Virus record (IMG/VR): IMGVR_UViG_3300037504_000207 | Location: 1 to 26,059 of that record | Source of the DNA: a virus | Taxonomy: Duplodnaviria; Caudoviricetes | DNA length: 26,059 nt | Reading direction: 5' to 3' (one strand) | Part shown: positions 11,886 through 26,059 of the stretch, in pieces | Position numbering within the stretch: position 1 is the stretch's first letter | How the letters are laid out: each line of letters starts with the position of its first letter | Program-made: the position numbers and the translations under genes | Notes under the pieces: generated by a model | The model's input: only the letters and a program-made list of their open reading frames with translations | Databases searched by the model: none | Told to the model about the DNA's origin: nothing

Positions 11886-12090
11886 ACTCCTTATTCATAA
11901 TCTCAAACGCTTCCGGGCTCATCTTCTGTAACTGCGCCTTGGTTGCTTCATCCATCGAATCCCACATCACCGCCATCATCGTGTCGCGCAACGGCCCGTA
12001 GAACATCTCCTCAAACTCTCTCTGCCATTGCTCAAAATCAGTCGTTCCGCTCAGGTAGGCGTCTTCCGCATCAGCAATCGTCAGCATCAT
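11866..12090 (-). CDS. Small acidic hypothetical protein (74 aa)
   Basis: Overlaps the portal stop and the next start; coupled operon arrangement. Confidence 0.7.
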   Translation of the reverse strand: MMLTIADAEDAYLSGTTDFEQWQREFEEMFYGPLRDTMMAVMWDSMDEATKAQLQKMSPEAFEIMNKEYGYGNA

Positions 12091-13853
12091 GTCGTCATCT
12101 CCTCAGGGTTAGGTGGCTGCTCAGGTGGCAGGGTCCCTTCCGGCGGCTGCATCCCACCCTGGGCCATCTCAGGCGGTAGTCCTTGCAACCCTGGGCCCTG
12201 CTGCTGGGGTGGTCCTTGTGGCATCGCTCCAGGCGGCACCTGTCCGGGCTGCGGTTGCATGGGCGGTTCGGGCTGCATCACCTGCTCGCGCATCATCTCA
12301 AGCTGGGCCATCTGGTCGAGCATAAACTTCTCGAACATCGTATCAGCCGCCCGCTCACTCCAAATCTCCCTATTCATGACCGCAGGCTTGCCTTCGTTCA
12401 AGATGTTTTCCTGCACATATCGGCGTGACGCAATGTTTTTGTCCACCAACAGGCCAGCCACGTTCGCATTTTGCAGCGCATCCTGCGGCAACGAAACATC
12501 CAGCTTACACTCCAGCTCGAAATGTCGGGGGATGTCCTTCGGAGCCAACGATCCAAGGATGTGTTCGTACTCGGCTTTCTTCGGGGGCTCTTCCTTCAAC
12601 CAAACCAGCGCTTTCTTCACCGCCGATCCAATTCCCCATCCCGCTTTCTTCTGCGGCATCAAGAGCGGCAAGCGTCCGGCCTGATGGAGCAGGGCAACCA
12701 TGCTAAAGGCTGCGTTCTTCCCCATCGGCTCGCCCAGCGCCTGAGAGTAGATCGTGCTCTCCTGCACCTTGCTGTCGGCAATGTCGTACAGGTCCATCAA
12801 GAGCGGGTTGACAACCTTGCTCAGGTCGGCGGGCTTCAAGTCACCGCCATCCGGCACATTCCACTTCCCGCCCATCACGCTAAAATCGAGCTCGGCTTCC
12901 TCACCTTGGGCGTTCAATTGGTTCACCCATTGCGGGTTGCCGCCCATCTTTAGCAGCGACGTGTACGCCAGGGTCAGGGCCAGGTTTTGCATACTCCCCA
13001 GCCCGGTCTTGTTGGTCGTGAACCCCATCGGCTGGCGCTGGTCTTCCGGCTTCTCGAATAACATACTGCCTTCGCCAAGCTGCACAACCACAGGAATGAA
13101 CGGAAGCCCATGTTCTTCTTCCAGCAGGAACTCGTTATTGCCACGGATCCAAACGTAGCGGTACTTCCAGTCCCACAATTGGCACAGGGTCACTTCCTTG
13201 TAGCGGTCATCCGTCTTCTGGATCTGTTCACTGGCGCCTTCAAAGGTTGCAATCAAATCCCCGGTCATCACGTCCACTTCCCGGTAATAGGCTTTCAAAC
13301 CCATGTTGTCGAAATCAGGGTAGCCGTTCCGTGGATCCCACACGTCGAACGTGAACGGGGTCAGGCGTGCAATCTCTTCGGCCCGGTACAATTCTGCCTT
13401 GCTAATCTGGTCGTTCTCCTTACGCTTCTCCGCTGCTCCCACCATGTCGGCCGTCCGTGTGATCCCCATGTGCATCTCGCCCCACAAGTTCAGGGACAAA
13501 GCCACATCGTAGTGAATGGGGTTGTTCGCCACCCGACCAGCAGCACGGAAAACTTTATCAGCCGCCAACTCCAACGCATCAGCCTGGTCGTAGACCTCAT
13601 CCGTGTTCATGTCCTGTGGGATACTGAACTGTGGCATCGTGGCCGATAGCAGCCTGTTAGCGCCAAGGATACGGTTGCGCACGTCCGGGGACTTGACGAT
13701 CTTGACATCGTCCAACTTTGACTTGACGCTGTTCTCTTCGTCCCACTCCATTAGGTAGTCTTTTTCGTAGTCGTCCTGTGCGTTTACCCGCTGGGTGTGC
13801 GTCTCTTTCAGGTGCTTGGCGTACTGGCTTATGTAATCAAATGTGTCGCTCAT
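12087..13853 (-). CDS. Portal (head-tail connector) protein
   Basis: 588 aa, coupled directly downstream of terminase large subunit; FIPVVV-type motif and Gln/Pro/Met-rich C-terminal tail typical of podovirus-type portals. Confidence 0.8.
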   Translation of the reverse strand: MSDTFDYISQYAKHLKETHTQRVNAQDDYEKDYLMEWDEENSVKSKLDDVKIVKSPDVRNRILGANRLLSATMPQFSIPQDMNTDEVYDQADALELAADKVFRAAGRVANNPIHYDVALSLNLWGEMHMGITRTADMVGAAEKRKENDQISKAELYRAEEIARLTPFTFDVWDPRNGYPDFDNMGLKAYYREVDVMTGDLIATFEGASEQIQKTDDRYKEVTLCQLWDWKYRYVWIRGNNEFLLEEEHGLPFIPVVVQLGEGSMLFEKPEDQRQPMGFTTNKTGLGSMQNLALTLAYTSLLKMGGNPQWVNQLNAQGEEAELDFSVMGGKWNVPDGGDLKPADLSKVVNPLLMDLYDIADSKVQESTIYSQALGEPMGKNAAFSMVALLHQAGRLPLLMPQKKAGWGIGSAVKKALVWLKEEPPKKAEYEHILGSLAPKDIPRHFELECKLDVSLPQDALQNANVAGLLVDKNIASRRYVQENILNEGKPAVMNREIWSERAADTMFEKFMLDQMAQLEMMREQVMQPEPPMQPQPGQVPPGAMPQGPPQQQGPGLQGLPPEMAQGGMQPPEGTLPPEQPPNPEEMTT

Positions 13854-15271
13854 AGTCTTTCACTCATCCTTACTAGCTGCTCGAATTGTGATCGCTGTGG
13901 CTTCTTCTCTCGGGGCTTCTTGATCGTCTTGGTGTTGGATAATAAATACTTCAGCGCATCAAATAGGTGGTCTTCGCTGTCTGTGTCCACGTCCTCAGGT
14001 CGCAGCTCATCGGTCGGCAGGGCTGGGAACGTGCGAATGAAGTTGCCCAAGGACCGGAATACCTGTATCCCTGGCTTCCCATCCGGCAGCAGGCCCAGCA
14101 GGTTGTTGATCTTCCGTATACCCATCAGCCGGTCATTATCTGCCTTGGTCAATATCACGCCTTCGTCCCGGTACTCATCAGCCGTCGAATAAAACTGCTC
14201 CTTCTTGCTCTTCTTCGTCCACATGCTTGGGTCAGCATACGTCACCCGCATCACTTCATCGGGTGGTGTCATCAGCCGTATCAACCTAGCCTGTTGCGTG
14301 TCGCTCAATCCTGTCTCGTAGGCTTCTCGATATAAATAAATCCTGCCAATGTCCAGGTCCTTCGCTGCCCATAAGCAGGCAAACGGCGCATGTCGCCCCC
14401 AGTCCACCGCTCTCCACTTCGGCCATACCGTCGGCAAGGTGAACGGCTCAACCGTGTGGATGTCATAATTCCAGTTGGGGAACGCCATCCCCTCGAACAC
14501 ATCCCAATCACCTTCCCGCCACGCCTTGCCCAGGTTGCCCTTGATCCCCTCCAGGTACTCGATGTAGCTCTCATTTAGGAACGGGTTGTCCTTATACACG
14601 CCTGGGAAGAAGCACGTCCGGCCACCGATGAAACGATGGTCGCTGTCATCCCGGCGGTAGGGCAATACGAAATTCTCCTTGAACCACAGATGACCGACGC
14701 CGCCGGGGTTGGTGGTCAGGTATACCCGCGGCCTCCAATGCGGCTTGGATGTGCGCAAACTACCCCGCAGCTTGGTGATAATGTCTTCGGTCAGCGATGT
14801 CGCCTCCTCAACTACGATAACGTCGTACTCAACGCCAATATATTTCATGATCTGACCGGGGTGCAAGAAGCCACCAATCAATATGCGTGAGTCATTCCCA
14901 AAATCGATCCGCTCTTTCTTGATGTCGGCGTCCGTGTGTGCGAATACTCTAACGGCAAGGTCCTCCATGCTCTCGCCAGCCGTCTTCTGGATCTTCCTGA
15001 GAAACAGCACCTTCATATTAGGCTGTCTCTGGCAGTCATCCAGGCCAACCTGCGCAAAGGTGGCGTGAGACTTGCCGGGGCCACGAGCACCACCCAGCCC
15101 GATCCACACCGGGCCATCGTGCTTATCAGCCCGCCGTGCAGCAGCGTGAAACGCCATCGCCCACGGCAGGGGTATATATCCTGATTTGGTAAAGTTCTCG
15201 ATCTGATTAGCAGGCACACCAGCAGCGTGCGCCATGCCCATCATTCGCTCAAGCTCCTTCTTCGCTACCAT
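13850..15271 (-). CDS. terL: Terminase large subunit
   Basis: Walker A GGARGPGKS, Walker B VIVVEEA, coupling motif TTNPGG, nuclease motifs AVDWG, YADPS, DHLFDALKY. Confidence 0.95.
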   Translation of the reverse strand: MVAKKELERMMGMAHAAGVPANQIENFTKSGYIPLPWAMAFHAAARRADKHDGPVWIGLGGARGPGKSHATFAQVGLDDCQRQPNMKVLFLRKIQKTAGESMEDLAVRVFAHTDADIKKERIDFGNDSRILIGGFLHPGQIMKYIGVEYDVIVVEEATSLTEDIITKLRGSLRTSKPHWRPRVYLTTNPGGVGHLWFKENFVLPYRRDDSDHRFIGGRTCFFPGVYKDNPFLNESYIEYLEGIKGNLGKAWREGDWDVFEGMAFPNWNYDIHTVEPFTLPTVWPKWRAVDWGRHAPFACLWAAKDLDIGRIYLYREAYETGLSDTQQARLIRLMTPPDEVMRVTYADPSMWTKKSKKEQFYSTADEYRDEGVILTKADNDRLMGIRKINNLLGLLPDGKPGIQVFRSLGNFIRTFPALPTDELRPEDVDTDSEDHLFDALKYLLSNTKTIKKPREKKPQRSQFEQLVRMSERL

Positions 15272-15701
15272 AGACCTTCTTCAGCATCTCTTCAACGCCT
15301 GGTAGGTTCACATCGAAACCGCCTTCCGCTTCGATAACCTGTGCCGCTTTACCCAAAACACGATCTAATATTTCTGACGACGCCGACTGCCTGATCTTCT
15401 CGTCGCTGCTATCAAGACCACCCAGCTTTATCAGTGCGGCTTTAGCAACACCGTCAGCTAGCATCTTAGCGGCAGCATCAGATACGTGCGCATGGTAAAG
15501 AGTAACAGCCTTATCAACATCCTTAGGCCAGTTGTATACGGTGGTTTCATGTAGACCAATAGCAAGAGCAGCCTCCTTCTTGTTGCTAGACTCGGCCATC
15601 TGAACAACAAACCGTCTCTGGTTGTGGTTCAATCGCTTCCAAATCTCCGCAAACTCTTCTGAATCTTGCTCAGATATAGGATTGTCTACTTGATTCCTCA
15701 T
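15249..15701 (-). CDS. Probable terminase small subunit (N-terminal HTH)
   Basis: LNHNQRRFV...KKEAALAIGLHETTVYNW HTH; ILDRVLGKAAQ motif; immediately upstream of terL. Confidence 0.75.
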   Translation of the reverse strand: MRNQVDNPISEQDSEEFAEIWKRLNHNQRRFVVQMAESSNKKEAALAIGLHETTVYNWPKDVDKAVTLYHAHVSDAAAKMLADGVAKAALIKLGGLDSSDEKIRQSASSEILDRVLGKAAQVIEAEGGFDVNLPGVEEMLKKVYGSEEGA

Positions 15702-15885
15702 TATCCTTCACTGTTTCTACTGAAACCCTCAAAACCTTCTCGCGCATGGCAAGCAGACGGACAGCGCTAGCCATCTCGCTCTCGGGTATCTCCAACTGTA
15801 TGCGCATCCCGTCACCCTGGCCGTGCACCTTGATGGCCGACTGGATGCCGGGGAATGTGGCGAGAAACTCTACTGGCTTGCTCAA
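15670..15885 (-). CDS. Hypothetical protein (71 aa)
   Basis: Overlaps both neighbours in the operon. Confidence 0.65.
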   Translation of the reverse strand: MSKPVEFLATFPGIQSAIKVHGQGDGMRIQLEIPESEMASAVRLLAMREKVLRVSVETVKDNEESSRQSYI

Positions 15886-16175
15886 TTACACGAACTCCAC
15901 TGATCGAACGGAGCCACATCAATGCCATGCTCCGCCAGTTTCAGGCGCAGGTCGAAAATGTACTCACGCAATTTCAAATTCTCTTTGTGATATTGAATGT
16001 TCTCCCGGGTGAGATCGTCCACTCGCTCACGTAACTCGTTGAGCTCGGACTGTTTCGCTGTCGTCCGGGTCGCATACCACGATCCGGCCAATGCTCCCCC
16101 GGTCGTCAAGACGGTGCCAATGAGTCCGGCCAGTGCTATCTGTAGTGTGACGGGCATAAGGTCACTCCACATCAA
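15882..16175 (-). CDS. Membrane-anchored coiled-coil protein (possible lysis accessory)
   Basis: N-terminal hydrophobic helix followed by heptad-like ELNELRERVDDLTRENIQY; next to holin. Confidence 0.6.
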   Translation of the reverse strand: MMWSDLMPVTLQIALAGLIGTVLTTGGALAGSWYATRTTAKQSELNELRERVDDLTRENIQYHKENLKLREYIFDLRLKLAEHGIDVAPFDQWSSCN

Positions 16176-16542
16176 GGAGCTTTTCGGCGTTGTACAATCG
16201 CAGTACCTCAGACTCGATCAGGTCAACAATGTGACCCACGTCAATATGACCAAGACCGTGACTATACATCCAGTCCTGAACATAGGTAATCGCGTATTGC
16301 AACTTATCTTCAAGCTCGTCAATCTCACCGAGACGCTCGGCCTCTTTGACAGCCTCGGTGACACCCTTCATCAGAATACGCCACGCGTTGGGGTATTTGC
16401 TCTTGGCCCAATCAATCGGCTCTCGGCTTTTACGCAGCAGCCAACCAACAGCCGCACCGATAAGGCTAGGAAGAATCAGAGAGAGAAACACACCAAGCGC
16501 AGCAACAGCGCCGTCTTGCAACAGTTCGAGAATATCCATCAT
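16162..16542 (-). CDS. Holin, LL-H-like family
   Basis: One N-terminal TM helix, then AVKEAE...KLQYAITYV...IVDLIESEV pattern resembling LL-H holins; GAAAGGAG RBS. Confidence 0.7.
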   Translation of the reverse strand: MMDILELLQDGAVAALGVFLSLILPSLIGAAVGWLLRKSREPIDWAKSKYPNAWRILMKGVTEAVKEAERLGEIDELEDKLQYAITYVQDWMYSHGLGHIDVGHIVDLIESEVLRLYNAEKLLDVE

Positions 16543-16565
16543 AAGCTCCTTTCAAAGCTAGAATC

Positions 16566-16604
16566 AAAAAGACCGGAGCCGCCCATACGGACGTAGCCCC
16601 GGTC
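16566..16604 (-). terminator. Leader hairpin with U-tract, copy 2
   Basis: Minus strand GACCGGGGCTACGTCCGTATGGGCGGCTCCGGTC-TTTTT; homologous to 653-696. Confidence 0.75.
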
Positions 16605-16636
16605 GATGACCAAAAGTTATTCGGTTAGTTATGATA

Positions 16637-16665
16637 ATTATAGTATATATTTAGCGACAGTGCAA
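16637..16665 (-). promoter_or_regulatory. Sigma70-type promoter, copy 2 (lysis/packaging operon)
   Basis: TTGCAC (16665-16660), 17-bp spacer, TATAAT (16642-16637). Confidence 0.8.
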
Positions 16666-16705
16666 GCGGTTGCGCTCACCCCAACAGCGGCTCCGGATCG
16701 TGCCA

Positions 16706-16921
16706 TCATTCACCTCTCAATATCTCTAATACATCTCCCAGCCGACTCTCAACGTACTCATACTCATTTTCAAATATCAGTTTTTCTTCTATGTCCGATA
16801 TTGCCGCGAATATTTCTTTCTCGACAGCAACCAGCACATTTCTAAGGTATTCAGCGCAATGAGTTGTATCGGGATGATCGTCTGCACTTTCTAATAGCTT
16901 GCCACAATATTCACATTTCAT
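16706..16921 (-). CDS. Small Zn-finger-like protein, last gene of the array (cassette-like start, no attC found downstream)
   Basis: CEYC..H..C; preceded by GTTAGCC and AGGAAAGG RBS. Confidence 0.7.
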   Translation of the reverse strand: MKCEYCGKLLESADDHPDTTHCAEYLRNVLVAVEKEIFAAISDIEEKLIFENEYEYVESRLGDVLEILRGE

Positions 16922-16943
16922 CTTTCTACCTTTCCTAAAAGCA

Positions 16944-17138
16944 GGCTAACGTTTTGCATAAGCTGCGGGGAGATTTGCTAGACATGCTCCCGCTCTGTGC
17001 ATGTGCAATCCCATTGTAACGAGCCTGCACAAATACCACAGTGTTGATGTGGCTCATCGCAGTTGCAGGGCCAAGCCTCTTTGCAATTACCACAATAGTC
17101 ACCGGCGATTCCCCCGTCAGCTTTATGCTGAGTTGGGC
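16944..17138 (-). repeat. attC site 13 (195 bp, long coding loop)
   Basis: + strand GGCTAAC..GCATAAGCTGCGGGG pairs with CCCCG-T-CAGCTT-T-ATGC..GTTGGGC. Confidence 0.8.
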
Positions 17139-17259
17139 TGCGCTCATCAGAATGAGCGCGTCTTTTGGCACAATCATCACACATTTGTACCGCTGCGCCA
17201 TGATGTTCCGCAACAACCTTGTGCCCACACTTGGCGGTAAGTACCATTCTGAAGCTCAT
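16978..17259 (-). CDS. Cassette gene: Cys-rich protein (93 aa) reading into its attC
   Basis: AAGGAG RBS; multiple CxxC motifs. Confidence 0.65.
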   Translation of the reverse strand: MSFRMVLTAKCGHKVVAEHHGAAVQMCDDCAKRRAHSDERSPTQHKADGGIAGDYCGNCKEAWPCNCDEPHQHCGICAGSLQWDCTCTEREHV

Positions 17260-17288
17260 AATTTATTTATTCTCCTTTTCTAAAAGCT

Positions 17289-17410
17289 GCCCAACGGTTT
17301 GCGTAACCCGGCGGCTTTGACACGTGACTTTGCGATGTGCGCTACGCTAACTGTAACTTTGCGGTCGCGTACCACGCGGCGCAGCCGCTCGGGTTGATGC
17401 TTTGTTAGGC
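17289..17410 (-). repeat. attC site 12 (122 bp)
   Basis: GCCCAAC..GCGTAACCCGGCGGCT / AGCCGC-T-CGGGTT-G-ATGC..GTTAGGC. Confidence 0.9.
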
Positions 17411-17812
17411 GTGAGAGTTTAGATAATTTGCCAAAGAACCAAGACCAACAAAAACCATTCCGCCATTATTGGCGATCATGCGGCCAACATTTCGCAACGA
17501 TTTTAGCTGCCCTTCCGTGAACCTTGCACCGCCTTCGTCGTATTCAAGATAGCAAAATAGTGTTTTGCTGGGGCGCTTATTGCTGTCATCAACAGCTTCA
17601 GCGATAGCATAAACGCCAGTCATTTTTGGAGTAATAACATATGTGCAGAAATCGCAACTCTCGCGCTCCTCCAACTCTCGTTGATACGCTTCCTCATTCC
17701 AATCATCGACAACGGGATTGAAATAGTCAATATCCAGCGAAGGGATCAATTGCTCTCGCCATTGTGACCCGTTGCATGTACCGCCTAAGAATACCTTTTT
17801 GCTTTTACTCAT
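17405..17812 (-). CDS. Cassette gene: nucleoside 2-deoxyribosyltransferase-like protein
   Basis: KVFLGGTCNGSQWRE, YFNPVVDDW, YAIAEAVDDS motifs of the NDT-like family; TAA stop lies in the R'' box. Confidence 0.85.
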   Translation of the reverse strand: MSKSKKVFLGGTCNGSQWREQLIPSLDIDYFNPVVDDWNEEAYQRELEERESCDFCTYVITPKMTGVYAIAEAVDDSNKRPSKTLFCYLEYDEGGARFTEGQLKSLRNVGRMIANNGGMVFVGLGSLANYLNSHA

Positions 17813-17837
17813 CTTTCTAAAACTCCTTTCGGCTCAC

Positions 17838-17958
17838 GCCTAACGGTGAGCATAACCTGGCGCCGTTGCTGCCGTCATTGGCAAGGCGGGCAACGCTTAC
17901 CGTAACTTTGGATCGCGTACCCCGCGCCGACGGCGCTCAGGTTGATGCGTGGTTAGGT
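17838..17958 (-). repeat. attC site 11 (121 bp)
   Basis: GCCTAAC..GCATAACCTGGCGCCG / CGGCGC-T-CAGGTT-G-ATGC..GTTAGGT; near copy of 20994-21114. Confidence 0.9.
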
Positions 17959-18245
17959 TCACTCTCATCTCGCAATGGAATTGGAGTACGATTAGACCAC
18001 CAATTTATTTTCGGTAACTCGTCTCGATGATATTCTTGTTCTTCTAAGGAATACTCAAAATATGGTGAGTATCCCTCACGTTGAAACGCATCCATCATGC
18101 CTATAAATTCGCGATATGCGTATTTACCAAGACTTATGCGAAACAATATCTTTGCAAAAATATTTCTTTCACGCATGGCTCTAATAAAGTCTAATGACCA
18201 TGTTGCCAGCGTTCCCCATTGTGTTTGCCTGATTTCTTTTCTCAT
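17937..18245 (-). CDS. Cassette gene: hypothetical protein (102 aa)
   Basis: Fills the cassette; ATG only ~10 bp from the core site with no clear RBS; ends inside the attC arm. Confidence 0.7.
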   Translation of the reverse strand: MRKEIRQTQWGTLATWSLDFIRAMRERNIFAKILFRISLGKYAYREFIGMMDAFQREGYSPYFEYSLEEQEYHRDELPKINWWSNRTPIPLRDESEPNHAST

Positions 18246-18254
18246 AAAATGTGA

Positions 18255-18376
18255 ACCTAACGGTGAGCATAACCTGCGGGGCTTGACACATTACTTTGCC
18301 CCAGTGAACTCGCCTGACGGAGCGCCGCTTACCACCGGGGCGCTGGCGCCCCGTCAGCGTTGATGCTTTGTTAGGG
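18255..18376 (-). repeat. attC site 10 (122 bp)
   Basis: ACCTAAC..GCATAACCTGCGGGGC / GCCCCG-T-CAGCGTT-G-ATGC..GTTAGGG. Confidence 0.9.
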
Positions 18377-19324
18377 CGCTTCTTCGCCCTGAGGTACTTG
18401 ATTTTGCGTGGACTGTTCTTGACTAACAGGAATTGATACTGGCGTTTCTCCTGAACCAAGGATAAGTACATCGGGAGTCTTTTCGTTTTCCGACATAACT
18501 TTGATCCAAAGGTACTGCACGGCTGCATCACCTTCCAGGCCAAGTACATTCAGCGATTCTTTTTGCTGTTCTGCGACCATAAAAGCAGTTTCGGCTTCGT
18601 ACATTTCACGCTGGCGTGATATTTTTGCGGCTTCTAGCAAGGCTGTTTGCTCGGTGATTTTTCGCTGACTAACAATGGACTCGTCAAAGCTCTTTGCGAC
18701 TTCTTGCGAAGTAAAATCCCAGTTTTTGAATGACACATTTGTTAACAATATCCCGCGCTTTTCAAACCACGGTGAAACATTTTTGAAGATAGACTCTTCA
18801 ACCTGTGCCCTTTTATCGCTGAGTTCTTCGGGGGTATATTCCTTCACGGACTTGGAGACATCACCAACAATGCTATTGCGCCAAACATTCATAATATGAT
18901 TTGCGTCAAGCGAACCCGTGCGATTTATTTCCTTGAGCCAATCGACCGATGCTGTATCATAGTAAAAGCAAAGATCAACTGTAATGCCATAGCTTCCCTT
19001 CAGAGCCGGAGTATACGTCTCGCATCGTTCATAGTTTGTTGATGCTGGGTACAAGTGGACAGAACCCCAAAAGGGCTTTTTGGCAAGGCCGTTAGAAAGT
19101 GGCCCGCGCAACTCCTGGGACATCGCCGCCTTGCTAATGCCAATATGTTGAGTTGGAACGATACGATGTGTCTGCAACCAAATACCCAAAACTAGACAAA
19201 CGATGGCGAAGAAGCCGATAACTGCGGCCCTGCCGCTATTCATATCCGTTAGCTCATACAAAGCCCAAAGGGCAAGAGCAACGAAAACGACAAACAAAAC
19301 TACTGCTGATATTCCGAATAACAT
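18371..19324 (-). CDS. Cassette gene: SPFH/Band 7 (prohibitin-like) membrane protein
   Basis: Two N-terminal TM helices, IVPTQHIGI, YTPEELSDKRAQVEESI, GILLTNVSFKNWDF, coiled-coil tail; ATG at 19324 after GAAAGG; stop in the R'' box. Confidence 0.8.
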   Translation of the reverse strand: MLFGISAVVLFVVFVALALWALYELTDMNSGRAAVIGFFAIVCLVLGIWLQTHRIVPTQHIGISKAAMSQELRGPLSNGLAKKPFWGSVHLYPASTNYERCETYTPALKGSYGITVDLCFYYDTASVDWLKEINRTGSLDANHIMNVWRNSIVGDVSKSVKEYTPEELSDKRAQVEESIFKNVSPWFEKRGILLTNVSFKNWDFTSQEVAKSFDESIVSQRKITEQTALLEAAKISRQREMYEAETAFMVAEQQKESLNVLGLEGDAAVQYLWIKVMSENEKTPDVLILGSGETPVSIPVSQEQSTQNQVPQGEEAP

Positions 19325-19377
19325 CTTTACTACCTTTCTGCCTTTCGGCAAACTAAAATGAACTTATTGGCGTAGCG

Positions 19378-19499
19378 CACTAACGGTTTGCATAACCTGC
19401 GGGGCTTGACACGTATCTTTGCCCAGATACATTCGCCTGACGGAGCGGAGCTTACCATCGGGGCGTGCGCGCCCCGTCAGAGTTGATGCAAAGTTCGCG
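19378..19499 (-). repeat. attC site 9 (122 bp, non-canonical R'' CGCGAAC)
   Basis: CACTAAC..GCATAACCTGCGGGGC / GCCCCG-T-CAGAGTT-G-ATGC..GTTCGCG; close relative of site 10. Confidence 0.88.
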
Positions 19500-19510
19500 G
19501 TTCAAAGCGG

Positions 19511-19816
19511 CTAAAGCTGAGACCTTCGCTTTATCATGGACAAAGCGCCACGAACAGCGGAAATCTTTGCGGCGCTGCCCCTAATCTTTTCTGACAGCTC
19601 GCATTCGCCCGAGTTTCTTGGTGTTGAGGTAGTATCCTTGCTATCGACGGCATTCAAGATAGGAGAAAGCATCTCGAGTAATTCCTTTGTGGCTTCTTCC
19701 AGAGACAAAACTTCTCTTTCAAGAACTTCTAGAGCCGCAGGAATATCCTTCTGCTTTGCGGCTACTTTCAAGTTGGGGGCTTCATGGTAATTATCTGGTT
19801 GAGTATATTCAGTCAT
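19511..19816 (-). CDS. Cassette gene: coiled-coil hypothetical protein (~101 aa)
   Basis: GGAAGG RBS, ATG at 19816; helical-hairpin-like sequence. Confidence 0.7.
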   Translation of the reverse strand: MTEYTQPDNYHEAPNLKVAAKQKDIPAALEVLEREVLSLEEATKELLEMLSPILNAVDSKDTTSTPRNSGECELSEKIRGSAAKISAVRGALSMIKRRSQL

Positions 19817-20168
19817 AAACACCTTCCTTTGCTACACTAAAAAGCTTTGACCGCGAACGGACAGGTTCACCGGCGTATATTGGGCAACCCCAATCATCTG
19901 GCACTAATGTGTAACCAGGGCAAGACATGTGATTTTCGCAAGATTCGCATACGTCCGGTGCAACAGTGGTTAGGCGAAAAACCGGTTCGTAGCCTTCAGA
20001 GATTGCCGTCCTAAGCTCATCTTCTTGCTGAGTATCCAGGTCGATGCAACCGCTAAAAACCGTTCCGCTGTGGAAATCGTGCATTGATAATTCGATACCC
20101 TTCTCTGTCATATACACTGATCCGCCGTCTTTTGCGTGCCAATCTTGAAATACTAAAGTAACTTTCAT
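19809..20168 (-). CDS. Cassette gene: hypothetical protein (119 aa) reading through its whole attC
   Basis: AGGAG RBS; frame stays open across 19852-19975 and stops in the next cassette. Confidence 0.7.
   Translation of the reverse strand: MKVTLVFQDWHAKDGGSVYMTEKGIELSMHDFHSGTVFSGCIDLDTQQEDELRTAISEGYEPVFRLTTVAPDVCESCENHMSCPGYTLVPDDWGCPIYAGEPVRSRSKLFSVAKEGVYD
19852..19975 (-). repeat. attC site 8 (124 bp, divergent, entirely within an ORF)
   Basis: CGCGAAC..GTTCACCGGCGTAT / ATACG-T-CCGGTG-C-AAC..GTTAGGC; both cores match the expected cassette ends. Confidence 0.8.
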
Positions 20169-20190
20169 TGCGTACTCCTGTAGGTTTTGC

Positions 20191-20316
20191 GCCTAACGGT
20201 TTGCATAACCGGATGGTGGGGCGCAAGGTAGGACTTGCATTTGCGGAAGGCATCGGATATCCTTTTTAGATGCTTTGCGCGCATTACCCACCATTCCGGT
20301 TGATGCTTTGTTAGCC
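20191..20316 (-). repeat. attC site 7 (126 bp)
   Basis: GCCTAAC..GCATAACCGGATGGTGGG / CCCACCAT-T-CCGGTT-G-ATGC..GTTAGCC. Confidence 0.9.
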
Positions 20317-20487
20317 CGCTATATCACGCACGAACTCATACAGGCATTTAATTTTACAGAAATCATAAGTCTTAGCCATGTTTTTGTTTTCCTTTTTTGG
20401 TAGTGACAGGGAGATCCATAACGTCGCTCGCGACACATCCTTCTTATTGCCGCACCAGTCACATTCGATCAAATGTTTTTTTGCCAT
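20311..20487 (-). CDS. Cassette gene: 58-aa Zn-finger-like protein (not in ORF track)
   Basis: GAAAGGA RBS; MAKKHLIECDWCGNKKD...YDFCKIKCLYEFVRDIAG*; TAA in the R'' box. Confidence 0.8.
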   Translation of the reverse strand: MAKKHLIECDWCGNKKDVSRATLWISLSLPKKENKNMAKTYDFCKIKCLYEFVRDIAG

Positions 20488-20512
20488 TGTTATATTCCTT
20501 TCCCGCGTAGCG

Positions 20513-20640
20513 GGCTAACGAACTTGCATAAGCTGCGGGGCGGATTGCCTACGCTTGCTCATGCTCGAATAATGTTTTTTGCTCAGGCTGACCGCTTACC
20601 CGCGGGGCGGTAGCCCCGTCAGCTTGATGCGTAGTTAGGC
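20513..20640 (-). repeat. attC site 6 (128 bp)
   Basis: GGCTAAC..GCATAAGCTGCGGGGC / GCCCCG-T-CAGCTT-G-ATGC..GTTAGGC. Confidence 0.9.
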
Positions 20641-20974
20641 CCAGCATATATTCTTTTGCTTTATCGTTGGCAATTCTAATTGCGTCTTGGGGGTTTTCTG
20701 ATGTGGCAGACACAATATATACTACCTTATTGCGTTCCCACGAATGGCGGTAGCATTCGTTTGGCAATAGTTTCGCACCACAACCAAGTGTAGGGTTGGC
20801 CCCACACTTTCTACAAACATCGCATATTACACCAACCTTGAATAACCACATTTTGCGGGTCCCATAGCCATTCATTGCATCACCAGTTGTTCTTGTAAGA
20901 GAAAAGCTGGTGTAAAAATTATTTTCTATCTTACTCAGAGCTTCATGGTTATTTATGCCCATTATTGCCGTCAT
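20549..20974 (-). CDS. Cassette gene: hypothetical protein (141 aa, Cys cluster) reading into attC loop
   Basis: GAAAGGA RBS; CDVCRKC..C..C. Confidence 0.7.
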   Translation of the reverse strand: MTAIMGINNHEALSKIENNFYTSFSLTRTTGDAMNGYGTRKMWLFKVGVICDVCRKCGANPTLGCGAKLLPNECYRHSWERNKVVYIVSATSENPQDAIRIANDKAKEYMLGLTTHQADGATAPRVSGQPEQKTLFEHEQA

Positions 20975-20993
20975 ATAATATTCCTTTCGCTGG

Positions 20994-21114
20994 GCCTAAC
21001 GGTTTGCATAACCTGGCGCCGTTGCTGCCGTCATTGGCAATGCGGATGGCGCTTACCGCAACTTCGGACCGCGTATCCCGCGCCGACGGCGCTCAGGTTG
21101 ATGCTTTGTTAGAA
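20994..21114 (-). repeat. attC site 5 (121 bp)
   Basis: GCCTAAC..GCATAACCTGGCGCCG / CGGCGC-T-CAGGTT-G-ATGC..GTTAGAA. Confidence 0.9.
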
Positions 21115-21244
21115 AGCGTACTGTTTCCGATAAAACCCTATATAGTTCTCGATAAATATATGGGTTTTTATAGTTTTTACTACACTTGATAATAAATGTA
21201 GTAAATATTATAAGGATAATCGCAACCAGATAGTATATGTACAA
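21053..21244 (-). CDS. Possible second small membrane-protein gene in the HNH cassette
   Basis: Hydrophobic N-terminus in an AT-rich tract; no clear RBS; may be spurious. Confidence 0.35.
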   Translation of the reverse strand: MYIYYLVAIILIIFTTFIIKCSKNYKNPYIYRELYRVLSETVRFLTKHQPERRRRGIRGPKLR

Positions 21245-21266
21245 ACAAATCCTATACAGTTATATG

Positions 21267-21602
21267 TCATGTGTATGGGTTTTGTCTGAGTACTTCAAGC
21301 GCTGCATTTTCTCTCTCGACAAATACACTTGTCTCGCCAGCGAACACAACCCTATGGCTCTCAGCCATATTTATAGCCGCTATTTTTCGACGATACTCTT
21401 CAACTGTTCGGGCACCTTTTGATACATTGCAGCTTTGACAAGATATAACTATATTGTTTGCATCGCCACCACCACGAGATATTGGCACCATGTGCTCTAC
21501 AACGCTATCTCCGGAGCATTTTTTTCCGCAATAAAAACAGTAAGAACCAATTGTTTCTAGCGCCTTTGCTGCCTTCCGTAAATAACCTAGGTCGATTTCC
21601 AT
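21267..21602 (-). CDS. Cassette gene: HNH endonuclease
   Basis: CFYCG...VEHMVPISRGG..ANNIVISCQSCNVSKG; ATG at 21602 after AAGGA (the upstream ORF-track start lies within attC). Confidence 0.88.
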   Translation of the reverse strand: MEIDLGYLRKAAKALETIGSYCFYCGKKCSGDSVVEHMVPISRGGGDANNIVISCQSCNVSKGARTVEEYRRKIAAINMAESHRVVFAGETSVFVERENAALEVLRQNPYT

Positions 21603-21619
21603 GATATGTTCCTTACGCT

Positions 21620-21739
21620 TTCTAACGGTTTGCATAAGGCGCGGGGCTTAGGCCATTACTTTGCCTGTGGCGCTTGCCAAAAGTCGCCGCAGTTTCACGC
21701 GGGGCGCTGGCGCACCGTCGCCTTGATGCCTTGTTAGGC
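21620..21739 (-). repeat. attC site 4 (120 bp)
   Basis: TTCTAAC..GCATAAGGCGCGG / CCG-T-CGCCTT-G-ATGC..GTTAGGC. Confidence 0.9.
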
Positions 21740-21964
21740 TGCTTTATATATGCCAACCATGCCTTGATGTTCTAATTCGTCAACGGTGTAGTGGTCAGTG
21801 GCTTTCGGGGGGCCAATGATGTTTTCGTTCACCCACTGCATATGGTATTGCCACTCGCGATCACGAATATTCTGATCGTGAAAAGCGGCATAAGAATATA
21901 CCAATTTAGATTTCGCATCTTCTTTTCTTGGATCATAGATGTTTGATAGGTGTTTTCCTAGCAT
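21734..21964 (-). CDS. Cassette gene: hypothetical protein (76 aa)
   Basis: AAAGGAG RBS; stop in the R'' box. Confidence 0.8.
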   Translation of the reverse strand: MLGKHLSNIYDPRKEDAKSKLVYSYAAFHDQNIRDREWQYHMQWVNENIIGPPKATDHYTVDELEHQGMVGIYKAA

Positions 21965-21986
21965 GTAAAGCTCCTTTCTAAAAGCT

Positions 21987-22105
21987 GCCTAACGAATGAG
22001 CTAAGCTGTGGGGCTTGATTCTTCACTTTGCCCAGGGCCTTCGCCTTTGATCGCTCGCTGACTCTTGGGGCGCTGGCGCACCATCAGCTTGAGCGCTAGT
22101 TGGGC
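21987..22105 (-). repeat. attC site 3 (119 bp)
   Basis: GCCTAAC..GCTAAGCTGTGG / CCA-T-CAGCTT-G-AGC..GTTGGGC. Confidence 0.88.
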
Positions 22106-22107
22106 AG

Positions 22108-22302
22108 CTATTCAAAAATATACTGACCATTATCTGATGCCTGAAAGTGCTTACAGTACTTCTCGTCGCAAAGATCATCTGCAACGATAACAAAATAACT
22201 AACCTGACCACAGATTGGACACGCGGCATACTCGAGATATGTCTGCGGGCCGTAATTGTTTTCAAGCTCAATAAGTTTCGCTTCTTCTGTGTACGTTTTC
22301 AT
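22108..22302 (-). CDS. Cassette gene: 64-aa Zn-finger-like protein
   Basis: AAGGAG RBS, ATG at 22302; CPICG...CKH; the longer ORF-track version starts upstream of the attC. Confidence 0.75.
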   Translation of the reverse strand: MKTYTEEAKLIELENNYGPQTYLEYAACPICGQVSYFVIVADDLCDEKYCKHFQASDNGQYIFE

Positions 22303-22326
22303 AATTTTATTTCTCCTTTGAAAGCT

Positions 22327-22461
22327 GCCCAACGGGCCGCGGTTGACCTGCAACGTGGGGGATCGACTGTAAGTCAACCGCTTTGCCCATAAGTTTGTTG
22401 TTACTCTCTCCGCCGCTTTCAGCGACAATCCCCCCGTTGCCAGGTTGAATCGCTGTTGGGC
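22327..22461 (-). repeat. attC site 2 (135 bp, divergent)
   Basis: GCCCAAC..GGTTGACCTGCAACG / CGTTG-C-CAGGTT-G-AATC..GTTGGGC. Confidence 0.8.
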
Positions 22462-22491
22462 GGCGCGGGTTCGACACAAAGAAGTCATGCG

Positions 22492-22707
22492 CTATGTCGC
22501 CATCTCTTGCTGTTCGTCTTGCCCGCCCGCCTTATTGCCAGAAAATGCTCTTTCGACACGATTAGCGGCGATAAATGTATCGTTGAGCATGGCAAAATCA
22601 TTGAAAGCGATATGCTTGATGCCAGGCATAAGGCCCTCTGCAATCTCTTTTAGATCAACAATGATTTCTGCGAGTTCTTCTTTTGTATAATCATCTTTCT
22701 TTGTCAT
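22492..22707 (-). CDS. Cassette gene: hypothetical protein (~71 aa)
   Basis: AAAGGA RBS, ATG at 22707; unusually long structured leader. Confidence 0.7.
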   Translation of the reverse strand: MTKKDDYTKEELAEIIVDLKEIAEGLMPGIKHIAFNDFAMLNDTFIAANRVERAFSGNKAGGQDEQQEMAT

Positions 22708-22833
22708 AATCTTTTCCTTTTGTAGATAAAATAGGGCGGGCATTTGGTAAATCTAGTAGCCCGCAAAACAGCGTAACCGCGGCCCGTTGGGCGTCGGGAG
22801 CGTGGCTCCCCGGAGGGGACGTCACCGAGCGAC

Positions 22834-22955
22834 GCCCAACGAACTTGTTTCACTTGCAGGGCTTGGGCAATTACTTTGCCTAGCAGTACACGCCCAAATG
22901 TTGGCCGCTTGCCACCAGGGCGCCCGCGCCCTGTCAAGTGGAAACGTAGTTAGGC
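22834..22955 (-). repeat. attC site 1 (122 bp)
   Basis: GCCCAAC..GTTTCACTTGCAGGGC / GCCCTG-T-CAAGTG-G-AAAC..GTTAGGC. Confidence 0.88.
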
Positions 22956-22965
22956 ATAAAGCGGG

Positions 22966-23454
22966 TTATTCACCGATAAGTCCGATACGACTGGCGCTTT
23001 TTTCTTCACCGATGCATACTGCGCAACAACCCATCGGCAGGCCATGTTCGCACTCAGTATCTCGTTCGCTGCGAACAATACTAAACCCATTGATTTCTTC
23101 GATGATGCCGTCAATATCATCAGCGCGTGTCTTTTCGGCTAAAGTAGAGACAATACACTCATTGAATTCTTCGTCTCCGCACCCCTGTAAATTGAACAAA
23201 TACTCAAGCCGCTCCCTGTCATAACTTGGGTTTCGTGGCAAAACCGCAATGACATCTCCAAAGTCAGATTCTTCCAACGGATGATACTCTTCTTGTACCC
23301 ACGTTAGCTTGACGCCGACCTGATGCTCATAAAACCCATTCGGAATATTGTCACCGCGCTCTTGTTGATATTCTTGCTCAATATCAAAATAGCGTATTGT
23401 ATCTCCGTTGCAGACTTCGATGCCATATTTGTCGTGGACTAAAATTGTAATCAT
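22966..23454 (-). CDS. First cassette gene: acidic protein with YopX-like N-terminal motif
   Basis: DKYGIEVCNGDTI resembles the YopX DKNGxEIYEGDI motif; GAAAGG RBS. Confidence 0.6.
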   Translation of the reverse strand: MITILVHDKYGIEVCNGDTIRYFDIEQEYQQERGDNIPNGFYEHQVGVKLTWVQEEYHPLEESDFGDVIAVLPRNPSYDRERLEYLFNLQGCGDEEFNECIVSTLAEKTRADDIDGIIEEINGFSIVRSERDTECEHGLPMGCCAVCIGEEKSASRIGLIGE

Positions 23455-23477
23455 TTGCTACACCTTTCTAGCTTTAT

Positions 23478-23496
23478 GCCTAACTATTAAATAGGC
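23478..23496 (-). promoter_or_regulatory. attI-like recombination site
   Basis: Minus strand GCCTATT-TAATA-GTTAGGC: degenerate L box, 5-bp spacer, canonical R box; no attC arm upstream; heads the array. Confidence 0.7.
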
Positions 23497-23550
23497 GTCA
23501 ACTCCGCTGTATAAAATCCCAAATTCCCCAAACTCCCGCACGTTCGCCGC

Positions 23551-23760
23551 CTAAATACCTACAACGGGGGAAATTGCGGCATGCTCGCGGCGCGAATTCT
23601 TTTCGCGCGTCATAGCGTAGTGTCTCGCCTTGCTCATACACCGCGCCGCAGCGTGTACCATGCCAAGCTGTAAGAACGCATCCGCAGCCAATCGGTAATC
23701 AGCCGGATCGCAACTAGCATCGGCATTCACCCGCAACGATCTCGCTTGTTGTAACGTCAT
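23551..23760 (-). CDS. Hypothetical protein (69 aa)
   Basis: AAGGAG RBS, start overlaps the upstream stop. Confidence 0.65.
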   Translation of the reverse strand: MTLQQARSLRVNADASCDPADYRLAADAFLQLGMVHAAARCMSKARHYAMTREKNSRREHAAISPVVGI

Positions 23761-24539
23761 CTTGTCTCCTTCAACATTGGCCGCATGTCGTCATCCATGT
23801 TCTTGACAATCGGCCACTCAGCAATCCTTGATAATATCCGGCGGTGGAGGAATGAATCGGGCTTATCATCCATCGCCATCACCGTACCTTTGCTCTCGTC
23901 CATCCGGTAGCGCCTGTCAATCAGCTTACCAAGCATCGTCTGGTTGTACTTCGACCAGGAGACAGCCGACATTTCGTCAAGACAAAGCACGGGCACATCA
24001 ACCAACGCATCCAATCGCGCCTTGGTATCCATATCGGCGTCGCCAAAGCCGGTCTTGATATAATCTTCAAAATCGGCGGCAGTCAAATAGATCGAACGCA
24101 CGCCACGATCAAGACACTCGTTTGCAATTGCCATCAGCGTTGTGCTCTTGCCGTTGCCATTGCTTCCCCAAATAGTCAGGAACCCGTGGGGAGATTCCAG
24201 GAACGCGGCCGCTTCTCGTATCATCGCCTTGGACCCCGGCCCCCGCTCCAGAATAGCATCCATGCGCACATCTTCCAGGTAAGAGCCTATCCGTTGCCGC
24301 TGCAAATACGCCGAGACTTCTCCCGATCGGCAGTCACAAACAAACGACTTGCCAAAACGCTCGTCCCACATCGGCACATCAAGGCGATAATAGCCAATCC
24401 CGTGACATATCTCGCAGTCAGGATCGCCCAAGCCGCTCTTTGACGGCGGCGACAGCGGCCCGCTCTTCTTCCGAGAGTTCAGCTGGGACCTTGGCGGCCT
24501 CGATCTCTCCTTGGAGACTATCTCCTGAATTGTTTCCAT
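23757..24539 (-). CDS. DnaC/IstB-like ATPase (helicase loader)
   Basis: CEICHG...CDC Zn site, Walker A GSNGNGKS, Walker B LCLDEM, RILSRI arginine finger; likely start METIQ at 24539 after AAGGAG. Confidence 0.88.
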   Translation of the reverse strand: METIQEIVSKERSRPPRSQLNSRKKSGPLSPPSKSGLGDPDCEICHGIGYYRLDVPMWDERFGKSFVCDCRSGEVSAYLQRQRIGSYLEDVRMDAILERGPGSKAMIREAAAFLESPHGFLTIWGSNGNGKSTTLMAIANECLDRGVRSIYLTAADFEDYIKTGFGDADMDTKARLDALVDVPVLCLDEMSAVSWSKYNQTMLGKLIDRRYRMDESKGTVMAMDDKPDSFLHRRILSRIAEWPIVKNMDDDMRPMLKETR

Positions 24540-25308
24540 TGTTCTCCTTCTCCCATTTCGGTTTGGATCCGTAACCTTCTTCCTCGTACCGATCCAGAAT
24601 AGCCCTGACATAACTCCATCGACGCTTGTTGTTGTCAACAGCGATCTTGAACGCCTTGGCTATCCACCTGTAAGGGTGGCGCTCTTCGTAGTCTTTGAGT
24701 TCGTCAGCAAGCATGGGCTTTATTGGTCCGATGTTCTCTTCGTACAGGCGGAAGATGTTGATGTTTCCACCACCACTACTATCTTTCCTCTTACTACTTG
24801 CATCTTGCCTCTTACTACTTACTACTGTCTCGATAGGTATGCAGCTACCTATCTTGATACCTATCTCAGTACCTATCTCTCCGCTATGATGAGCGCAATA
24901 ACCACCCGAGCAGTCCCAGTTATTCGTGACCACGTTTTTCCCTACGTGGTATTTCTCCCGGTCTACCCATCCTGTTAGAGCGGGAAAATCCGAAGGGGAT
25001 GCCCAGCTTGGGCGTTGGTGTTTCCACCAGTTGAGCAGTTGGCAAATTCCTTTGCCGTCAGCCTCGTATCGTTCGACCTTGCCAGCTTTCGCAAATTTGT
25101 CCAGCGCTTGGTCTACCTTGTCATCGGTCAAGTTCTGGTCGTAGGGAAATATCTCCGCACGTATCAGGAGCGGGTTATCCCAAAACCGACCTTGATCGTC
25201 TGCAACCTGCGCAAACAAACCGATCCAGAGCAAGCGTTCAAAAAAGGATAAGCTGCCTACAAAATCGTCCTCGAATAAGTCTGACTTGATTACTCGTTTA
25301 CACGCCAT
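24418..25308 (-). CDS. Phage replication initiator with C-terminal DnaD domain
   Basis: N-terminal ERLLWIGL..ADDQGR winged helix; IFRLYEENIG..AFKIAV...WSYVRAILDRY DnaD motif. Confidence 0.85.
   Translation of the reverse strand: MACKRVIKSDLFEDDFVGSLSFFERLLWIGLFAQVADDQGRFWDNPLLIRAEIFPYDQNLTDDKVDQALDKFAKAGKVERYEADGKGICQLLNWWKHQRPSWASPSDFPALTGWVDREKYHVGKNVVTNNWDCSGGYCAHHSGEIGTEIGIKIGSCIPIETVVSSKRQDASSKRKDSSGGGNINIFRLYEENIGPIKPMLADELKDYEERHPYRWIAKAFKIAVDNNKRRWSYVRAILDRYEEEGYGSKPKWEKENNGNNSGDSLQGEIEAAKVPAELSEEERAAVAAVKERLGRS
24787..24878 (+). repeat. Iteron-like repeats, probable replication origin within the initiator gene
   Basis: TACCTATCT at 24846, 24858, 24870 (12-bp period), inverted GATAGGTA at 24832, CCTCTTACTACTT at 24787 and 24808. 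Confidence 0.6.
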
Positions 25309-25914: not shown

Positions 25915-26059
25915 ACCTCCTCCTTCTCCACCGGCCCCAACCATAGGTAGGTGCCATCGTTGTAAACTTCTTCCGGCTCCCCGCCAACCCGCTCGGCGTA
26001 GCGCCTGCGGGCGGCCTCTTCGTCGTCATCGGCCAGGGGGAAGACCAGGTACTCGACAT
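25911..26059 (-). CDS. Partial hypothetical gene (3' end)
   Basis: Open frame ...VEYLVFPLADDDEEAARRRYAERVGGEPEEVYNDGTYLWLGPVEKEEV*, TGA overlapping the next ATG. Confidence 0.6.
   Translation of the reverse strand, partial: VEYLVFPLADDDEEAARRRYAERVGGEPEEVYNDGTYLWLGPVEKEEV

Follow-up and report, generated by a model that had tools for sequence, protein, structure and literature searches.

An integron-type cassette array of thirteen attC-like sites in the genome record of an uncultured tidal-flat phage

Introduction

Can the accessory region of a phage be built as an array of integron cassettes? Integrons are known mainly as bacterial devices for gene stockpiling and reshuffling, and the question is raised by the IMG/VR virus record IMGVR_UViG_3300037504_000207, in which a run of small genes separated by attC-like palindromes lies between the replication genes and the late genes of a tailed phage. 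The window analysed here is the entire record, a linear molecule of 26,059 bases (CheckV completeness 59%) whose credible genes are all on the minus strand. We find 13 attC-like sites on this minus (coding) strand, from position 22955 to position 16944, each 119-195 nt long and each located directly after, or overlapping, the 3′ end of a small co-oriented gene. About 14 small accessory genes, one or two per cassette, make up the array, which extends over 6.5 kb, a quarter of the record. We consider it likely that this is a genuine integron-type cassette array in a phage, assembled by an integron integrase acting in trans through crossovers between the G and the TT of the site core (hereinafter G/TT). 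The carrier of the array is an uncultured tidal-flat phage: tailed-phage hallmark genes identified with PHROGs (terminases and holin-like, DnaC-like and DnaD-like genes) reside on one molecule with the array, which, together with the listing as an IMG/VR virus record, confirms the phage assignment made in an earlier sequence-only reading of this DNA.

Thirteen attC-like sites on the coding strand

A covariance model (CM) was built from 11 of the 13 sites and run with filters off on both strands of the window; site coordinates are given throughout from the first base of R'' to the last base of R'. The CM scores its own 11 sites at 62.8-111 bits. The 195-nt site s12, held out and unseen by the CM, reaches 39.6 bits (E 7e-8) and s13 reaches 14.1 bits (E 0.05), and the remaining matches in the 26-kb window, on either strand, have E of at least 0.29, the best of them being the same sites on the wrong strand. 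Because a CM derived from its own sites risks circularity, we wrote a geometry finder that contains no family sequence. It seeks xxxxAAC followed by 2-8 nt, 3 bp, a bulge, 6 bp (or 3 bp, a bulge and 3 bp), a bulge and 3 bp, with an unbulged partner arm ending 3-9 nt before GTT and with pairing at 12/12 positions. This finder returns 11/13 sites on the minus strand, including the weak s13, with none on the plus strand and none elsewhere in the window, and in 20 block-shuffled windows it finds 0.1 sites on average and never more than 1. The two sites that it misses, s02 and s11, have one mismatch each; at 11/12 positions s11 is recovered and s02 is not, with 3 stray matches against 2.3 per shuffled window. 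The number and size range of the palindromes read from the letters (13, of 119-195 bp) are borne out, as is the placing of co-oriented, mostly single small genes between them, after the replication genes and all on the minus strand.

Five of the sites recovered by the geometry finder are s01 (22955-22834, 122 nt, 97.6 bits), s03 (22105-21987, 119 nt, 99.8 bits), s04 (21739-21620, 120 nt, 104.3 bits), s06 (20640-20513, 128 nt, 79.2 bits) and s12 (17138-16944), whose long middle is the 3′ half of gene 16978-17259. Site s02 (22461-22327, 135 nt, 62.8 bits), missed in the strict search, has a G as its last bulged base. Sub-groups exist among the sites, with up to 69-87% identity, and s05 (21114-20994, 121 nt, 96.5 bits) is 87% identical to s10 (17958-17838, 121 nt, 94.9 bits). 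Three bulged bases (3 bp, bulge, 3 bp) distinguish s08 (19499-19378, 122 nt, 98.4 bits) and s09 (18376-18255, 122 nt, 111 bits), and s07 (20316-20191, 126 nt, 76.2 bits) folds with a z score of -5.1. Site s11 (17410-17289, 122 nt) scores 101 bits. The weakest member, s13 (19975-19852, 124 nt), lies between s07 and s08, inside the open reading frame (ORF) 19809-20168, and has the unusual R' GTTCGCG.

Several sites merge with the genes that they follow. The TAA inside R'' serves as the stop codon of four genes, 21734-21964 at s04, 20311-20487 at s07, 18371-19351 at s09 and 17405-17812 at s11 (ends 21734, 20311, 18371 and 17405), in agreement with the four such genes counted in the sequence-only reading, and gene 17937-18245 ends inside L'' of s10. 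Three ORFs run through an attC site, namely 16978-17259 (s12), 19809-20168 (s13) and 20549-20974, which reads through most of s06; the interiors of s12 and s13 code for a Cys-rich peptide.

The sites have canonical attC geometry

The AAC and GTT triplets are invariant in 13/13 sites, and the full consensus RYYYAAC is present in 9/13 R'' and GTTRRRY in 8/13 R'. In the consensus fold from an alignment of 11 sites, a 5-bp R box is followed by an internal loop and then by a 9-bp L-box stem that an invariant unpaired C interrupts. Across the 17 consensus pairs of this fold, 92% of cells are paired and 10/17 pairs carry compensatory changes on both sides. None of 500 shuffles reaches any of the four main covariation measures, and sliding the partners by 1-3 columns lowers pairing to 18-48%.

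Each site runs from R'' (7 nt) through 3-4 unpaired nt, 3-4 bp, a bulge, 6 bp and another bulge into a further stem, and the spacer on the opposite arm measures 5-7 nt. In each of the 13 sites a stem of 6 bp separates the first bulged base from the last, with two or three bulges per site. The first bulge is C in 11/13 sites (G in s13, A in s12) and the last is A in 12/13 (G in s02), corresponding to an extrahelical G in 11/13 and an extrahelical T in 12/13 on the bottom strand. In s08 and s09 the third bulge lies in the middle of the 6 bp, which is the three-base variant described for some attC sites.

These features can be compared with the account of attC sites in the available text of Nivina et al. 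2016 (PMC5027507). There, the AAC triplet is the only conserved sequence, spacers usually measure 5-6 nt and site length spans 57-141 bp; the extrahelical bases are found close to L'' and, on the bottom strand, are as a rule a G followed by a conserved T; and IntI1 needs a 6-bp stem separating the first extrahelical base from the last. The same source places the extrahelical bases on the arm of AAC in the top strand and opposite AAC in the bottom strand. In the window, the bulges lie on the AAC arm (the gene-proximal arm) of the coding strand in 13/13 sites, which makes the coding strand the top strand; the plus strand of the window is then the bottom strand, the recombinogenic one, which extrudes G and T. 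The sites have canonical attC geometry in canonical orientation, as in bacterial integrons. Covariation of the stems between copies, an unpaired C and A in the gene-proximal arm with G and T on the other strand, and attC architecture in the proper orientation had all been claimed from the letters, and all hold under these measurements.

In length, 12/13 sites measure 119-135 nt and s12 measures 195 nt. When the plus strand is folded as single-stranded DNA and compared with shuffles, 8/12 sites tested have z of -2 or lower (range -1.2 to -5.1), and the unconstrained minimum-energy fold gives the full shape (R box, loop and bulged L stem) in 6/12. In 9/12 sites the plus strand is more stable than the minus strand, mostly by small margins.

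Cassette ends carry the footprint of G/TT recombination

Integron crossover takes place between G and TT of R', so that the TTRRRY after each attC site belongs to the next cassette. With the crossover inside R', the R'' of a cassette should complement the core at the 5′ start of that same cassette. This relation is seen throughout the array. At the variable core positions, the reverse complement of R'' matches the cassette's own start at 51/52 positions and the adjacent R' core at 34/52; when the core plus 7 nt is considered, the counts are 116/143 for the own start and 62/143 for the adjacent R'. The own start is the better match in 12/13 cassettes with a tie in one, and 0/20,000 random reassignments reach 116 (mean 62, maximum 94).

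The degenerate site s13 also gains support from this test: the odd R' GTTCGCG is answered by the equally odd R'' CGCGAAC of the next cassette, and the R'' of s13 agrees with its own cassette start at 10/11 positions. Since both ends of a cassette lie in unique sequence, the footprint is independent of the order in which the cassettes were assembled. We take it as strong evidence that each cassette once moved by site-specific recombination at G/TT, and it is hard to reconcile with terminators, repetitive extragenic palindrome-like (REP-like) repeats or simple duplication.

Directly after R' of s01, at the opening of cassette 2, a 57-bp hairpin (22785-22841, minus strand) has perfectly complementary 12-nt arms, and its far end is an R''-like core equal to the reverse complement of the cassette start. 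This hairpin, undetected by the CM, may be a vestige of an empty cassette or a collapsed 14th site.

Boundaries and contiguity of the array

The left junction (J0) consists of a GTTAGGC core at 23478..23484 on the minus strand, where cassette 1 starts. The 14 nt from GTTAGGC are the exact reverse complement of the cassette 1 R'' plus 7 nt, and the 40 nt upstream bear no resemblance to an attC arm. This makes the left edge a precise cassette junction, such as insertion by an integrase at an attI-like or a secondary GTT site would produce and a random breakpoint would not. attI sites are integrase-specific and unrecognisable without the integrase. The consensus scan lists no promoter before the first cassette.

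At the right edge, s12 is followed by a gene of 71 aa (16706-16921, minus strand) with no attC site after it and with a GC content, 0.39, like that of the cassettes. Its cassette-like leader is very like the leaders of cassettes 4 and 12. We read this terminal gene as a 14th cassette that lost its attC site; alternatively, it is a native phage gene beside the insertion point.

A second assembly was available as Logan contigs of the public run X1, a tidal-flat metagenome that holds 97% of the sampled words of the stretch and is possibly the source sample, in which case these are not independent data. One Logan contig (15081-16970) extends from the late genes across the gene of the terminal cassette and includes 27 letters of s12, and another (22812-23849) from the end of s01 through cassette 1 and the left junction into the DnaC-like gene. 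Both have zero differences from the record, and the two ends of the array, flagged in the sequence-only reading as places to examine for a chimeric assembly, are each bridged into phage genes by a single contig. Depth in run X1 is 16-23x and alike over the flanks and the unique cassette parts. Because the Logan contigs break in the repeats, the internal order of the cassettes is that of the IMG assembly only.

Two further Logan contigs, with a depth of 7-8, join distant attC regions, one leading from 19407 to 22473 (skipping 3,065 nt) and the other from 21729 back to 17285 (4,445 nt). We rejected these joints as signs of cassette movement, as their sides are only 25 and 32 letters long and the joins do not lie at G/TT; they could be cassettes of other organisms or minor variants.

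No integrase is encoded in the sequenced record

A search of all six frames of the 26,059-bp, 59%-complete record finds neither an integron integrase (TIGR02249) nor a tyrosine recombinase (PF00589). The array thus has no intI beside it, as a complete integron has, and it falls among the attC site clusters without an integron integrase (CALINs), which Cury et al. 2016 (PMC4889954) define, in the available text, as two or more attC sites with no nearby intI; here 13 sites are clustered with no integrase in the record. According to the same text, only 6.6% of bacterial CALINs have more than 10 sites.

The site family in bacterial arrays and in viral relatives

A stricter two-part pattern taken from four of the sites was used to look for the family elsewhere. 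It occurs in 13 metagenome contigs and in 0 viral contigs, a scan from which the record of the window itself was perhaps absent. The CM scores 27 sites on 12/13 of these metagenome contigs (19-58 bits, E up to 0.01), and two contigs carry arrays by this measure, eight sites on L052 and six on L054. Bacterial chromosomal genes (leuA/B/C-type, fabF-type and a Cys/Met pyridoxal-phosphate enzyme) are present on the eight longer metagenome contigs, and their cassette cargo includes PIN, ParD-like and HicB proteins, the Cass2 'integron-associated' domain, TIR and methyltransferases. No integrase was seen on the eight contig fragments scanned. As this attC family occurs in bacterial arrays with classic cargo, it belongs to the bacterial integron world. 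On L052 (1-5018), in which the geometry finder sees about nine sites to the eight of the CM, several sites are only ~265 nt apart, leaving cassettes with almost no room for a gene.

Read depth suggests that the family is common in the same community. A part of s06 (20570-20639) has a summed depth of ~900-1900x in run X1, compared with 18-28x in its surroundings. We infer that many more sites of the family exist in the community, as a large chromosomal integron would give. Several small indel variants of this segment occur, with at least five different flanks, one of which has another GTT core.

The viral loci with terminase homologues have no such sites. Homologues of the large terminase were found at 19 viral loci, the closest at 47-55% identity, and homologues of the portal-position gene at six; a search of viral contigs with the DnaC-like protein gave no relatives. 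On the 19 terminase loci (272,640 bases) the CM has 0 matches with default filters and 0 with filters off on 5/19, and the geometry finder has 0 sites on all 19. In the best terminase relative, the genes preceding the terminase stand so close together that such spacers would not fit. When 26 window proteins were compared by tblastn with all fetched loci, only the terminase and the portal-position protein matched. Ten cassette proteins were also looked up exactly in a collection of 15 billion proteins, where seven are singletons found on this contig only and three are absent. With terminase relatives that have no sites and cassette proteins that are singletons or absent, cassette content is not comparable between phages.

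An 18-base L'-R' word from the sites was pursued as a lead to the host and rejected, its matches being judged to be at chance level. It occurs at one viral locus and 25 genome loci, 21 of these in one metagenome-assembled genome (MAG) of the Nitrososphaeraceae, where (L004-L025) the word lies inside an apparently dispersed AT-rich repeat with conserved flanks that is unrelated to attC. On the 26 word loci the CM finds nothing with default filters and only 8-18 bits with filters off on four, and whole-genome CM searches of five word-match records give one match, of 26.8 bits.

Cassette genes

Neighbouring sites are spaced at most ~1.1 kb apart, and all genes between them lie on the minus strand. 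Cassette 1 (22966..23454) encodes a protein of 162 aa with no family match and no match in phage records. It is followed by three small genes, those of cassette 2 (22492..22743, 83 aa), which is preceded by the 57-bp hairpin, cassette 3 (22108..22302, 64 aa, read from an ATG after a ribosome-binding site) and cassette 4 (21734..21964, 76 aa). Cassette 5 (21053..21635) contains two ORFs, an HNH endonuclease gene (21267-21635; PF01844, E 5e-9, and PHROG HNH families) and a possible hydrophobic ORF of 63 aa (21053-21244). Cassettes 6 (20549..20974, 141 aa) and 7 (20311..20487, 58 aa, Cys-rich) precede the segment 19511..20168, in which the genes of cassettes 8a (19809-20168, 119 aa) and 8b (19511-19822, 103 aa) are parted by s13.

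Cassette 9 (18371..19351) encodes a product of 326 aa, an SPFH/Band 7 membrane protein (PF01145, E 4.5e-7; phrog_200) with distant matches in six Bacillus phage records. Cassette 10 (17937..18245) encodes 102 aa and cassette 11 (17405..17812) 135 aa, the latter being nucleoside 2-deoxyribosyltransferase-like (PF15891, E 1.2e-10). Homologues of its full length are present in 21 phage records, the hosts of which are very different, and the best has 57.6% identity. The Cys-rich product of cassette 12 (16978..17259, 93 aa), whose gene overlaps s12, is one of several small Cys-rich proteins among the cassette products.

Most cassette proteins have no match in the family libraries searched. PADLOC and NCBIfam searches of 15 cassette proteins give HNH-domain matches only, and no toxin-antitoxin pairs or known defence systems were found in the cassettes, unlike in the related bacterial arrays. 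In this small sample, the content resembles accessory genes of phages more than it does the usual cargo of chromosomal integrons. The mean guanine-plus-cytosine (GC) content of the cassette ORFs is 0.436 compared with 0.535 for the backbone genes, which speaks for a foreign origin of the cassettes. A consensus scan finds no enrichment of promoters (11 vs 11.6 expected) or terminators (11 vs 8.4 expected) in the array.

Origin of the array

How did the array come to lie in a phage? Our favoured answer, that an integron integrase working in trans built a true cassette array there, has to be weighed against three others. The palindromes might only resemble attC and be terminators, REP-like repeats or sites at which a different recombinase acts, as the lack of any IntI and an arm spacer 1-2 nt below the textbook value would allow. 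We judge this very unlikely, given that invariant AAC and GTT triplets, two bulges with 6 bp between them on the correct arm, and complementarity of each cassette's own ends that breaks exactly at G/TT are attC-specific features, that terminator-like sites are not enriched, that no tyrosine recombinase of any kind is encoded in the record, and that the same site family stands in bacterial arrays with classic cargo including Cass2. A false join of a phage contig to a bacterial integron array of the same metagenome is barely credible. The assembly is metagenomic, attC repeats are abundant in the sample and the Logan contigs break within them; against this, phage genes in the same orientation lie on both sides, so that two false joins would be needed, single Logan contigs (15081-16970 and 22812-23849) cross both outer junctions without a difference, and depth is even at 16-23x over the flanks and the unique cassette parts.

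The main rival is capture en bloc, in which a ready-made piece of a sedentary chromosomal integron of the host entered the phage by illegitimate or homologous recombination and has since been passive, never rearranged cargo. Much of the evidence would fit such an event: the long sites of one family, as in chromosomal integrons, with sub-groups 69-87% identical; a cassette GC content ~10 points under that of the backbone; a record with no integrase; terminase relatives with no such site; a last cassette with no attC; and the precedent of a Vibrio anguillarum prophage carrying a 16-attC piece of its host's integron. The left boundary, however, coincides exactly with a G/TT start that has non-attC sequence upstream, a place that a random breakpoint would seldom hit. 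The array also has an internal position, with the replication module on one side and the lysis module on the other, and not one at a prophage edge. All cassettes are co-directional with phage transcription, and the cargo is phage-typical (an HNH endonuclease and a deoxyribosyltransferase-like gene), the toxin-antitoxin cargo of the related bacterial arrays being absent. On balance we regard en bloc capture as unlikely.

Several observations weigh against assembly of a canonical array by an integrase. The spacer of the R''-L'' arm is 3-4 nt, where the available text of PMC5027507 gives 'usually five to six', and the first bulge is at position 15 instead of the quoted 16, if the numbering of that text begins at the R'' end; s12, with 195 nt, exceeds the quoted range of 57-141, and s13 is weak and degenerate (14 bits). 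Integron integrase and tyrosine recombinase are both absent from the record, which has a completeness of 59%. The search for relatives yielded none that carries another set of cassettes, so movement within phages was not observed. The last gene has no attC site, and only if it is a native phage gene would the right end be a clean integrase product. The Logan contigs, finally, break inside the attC repeats and come from a run that may be the source sample.

Under the assembly that we favour, an integron integrase would have made the cassette junctions, acting on the phage genome itself by site-specific recombination as cassettes entered the phage. Such action on the phage genome is suggested by the precise left G/TT junction beside non-attC sequence and by the position between replication and lysis genes. 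The enzyme would have been supplied by a chromosomal integron of the host or encoded in the missing ~41% of the phage. Transcription of the array would proceed by read-through from upstream phage promoters of the early/replication genes, and the array may act as an exchangeable accessory region in place of a nin-like region.

A more far-reaching proposal is that this accessory region is a working integron platform with no integrase of its own, in which the integrase of the host swaps cassettes during infection with the host's chromosomal integron, abundant in the same sediment, and the replicating, single-strand-rich phage genome would serve as exchange partner. We regard this as possible but doubtful; if it is true, phages and bacterial integrons share one cassette pool, and phages carry cassettes between hosts. 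That the phage acquires and shuffles its cassettes, as the sequence-only reading supposed, did not find support, there being no integrase in the record, no sites in the relatives, and cassette proteins that are singletons or absent.

Comparison with known systems

The position of the array recalls the nin-type region of lambdoid phages, which likewise lies between the replication and the lysis/late genes and contains many small dispensable genes. On the usual view, it is homologous and illegitimate recombination that changes nin-type regions; in the present array each gene is part of a cassette for site-specific recombination. The array fills the slot of the phages' dispensable early genes, and a quarter of the phage record is organised as integron cassettes.

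Phage-borne integrons have been described before, so the suggestion that this may be an undescribed system does not stand: both phage integrons and integrase-less attC clusters were published by Qi et al. 2023 (PMC9892861, Front Microbiol), the only work dealing with the subject within a limited collection of literature. According to the available text, a survey of 10,705 phage genomes yielded three complete integrons, one In0 and 17 CALINs, and 5/6 phage attC sites recombined with attI1 under IntI1. Table S1 lists 2-3 predicted attC sites per phage in 14 additional phages, and phage TJE1 has three. The array is of a kind already known, of which it is a large, clean and canonically oriented member. 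It shares with the phage CALINs in the available text of PMC9892861 the combination of attC sites and co-oriented small cassettes in a phage genome with no integrase nearby, and differs from them in its 13 sites, all of one family and spread over 6.5 kb, in the boundary footprint that every cassette shows, and in residing in an uncultured phage with an incomplete genome. The published integrase-less phage arrays are tiny (2-3 sites) compared with the 13 sites here.

A long phage-borne array is also present in the Vibrio anguillarum prophage Va_90-11-286_p16, with 16 similar attC sites (PMC9892861). As far as the available text goes, that prophage, unlike the phage here, carries intIA, and its array is a subset of the host chromosomal integron, located where the prophage excises between two host attC sites; the present array is internal, between replication and lysis genes. 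Long attC sites of one family (119-135 nt here), cassettes of mostly unknown function and chimeric boundaries are features that it shares with sedentary chromosomal integrons and with bacterial CALINs, as described in the available text of PMC4889954. It differs from bacterial CALINs in sitting in a virus and in having cargo without the toxin-antitoxin and defence genes of the related bacterial arrays.

Movement of cassettes between phage and host, if it occurs, would mean that phages not only use the integron gene pool but also carry it, and would bear on the spread of accessory, defence and counter-defence genes in sediments. The array offers concrete sites for the standard recombination assay, two of them embedded in coding sequence.

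Phage genome surrounding the array

All genes flanking the array are on the minus strand. Upstream of it lies the replication block (23757..25308), consisting of genes for a DnaC-like helicase loader (23757-24638) and a DnaD-like replication initiator (24418-25308), both assigned with PHROGs, and beyond this block a gene for a phrog_874 protein (25312-25944). The late block (12087..16542; PHROGs) lies downstream and includes the holin-like gene (16162-16542), the small terminase (15249-15701), the large terminase (13850-15271; phrog_2, E 1.5e-35) and the portal-position gene (12087-13853), which has homologues in viral contigs. A megablast search of 15 kb against 50,697 phage records gives no match, and an Rfam scan of the window gives 0 matches.

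Between the last cassette gene and the holin-like gene, TTGCAC and TATAAT are separated by 17 nt (16637-16665, minus strand). This element is probably the 'late promoter' named in the sequence-only reading, is unlisted in the consensus promoter scan, where its first hexamer matches only 3/6, and sits within a pair of 10-nt inverted repeats ~100 nt apart, with a T run after the second.

A single ORF (931-10893, minus strand), located downstream of the head genes, encodes a protein of 3,320 aa. Its one Pfam match, with no others found, is to the ART-PolyVal domain (E 1.1e-16, residues 2300-2350), the ADP-ribosyltransferase of 'polyvalent proteins'.

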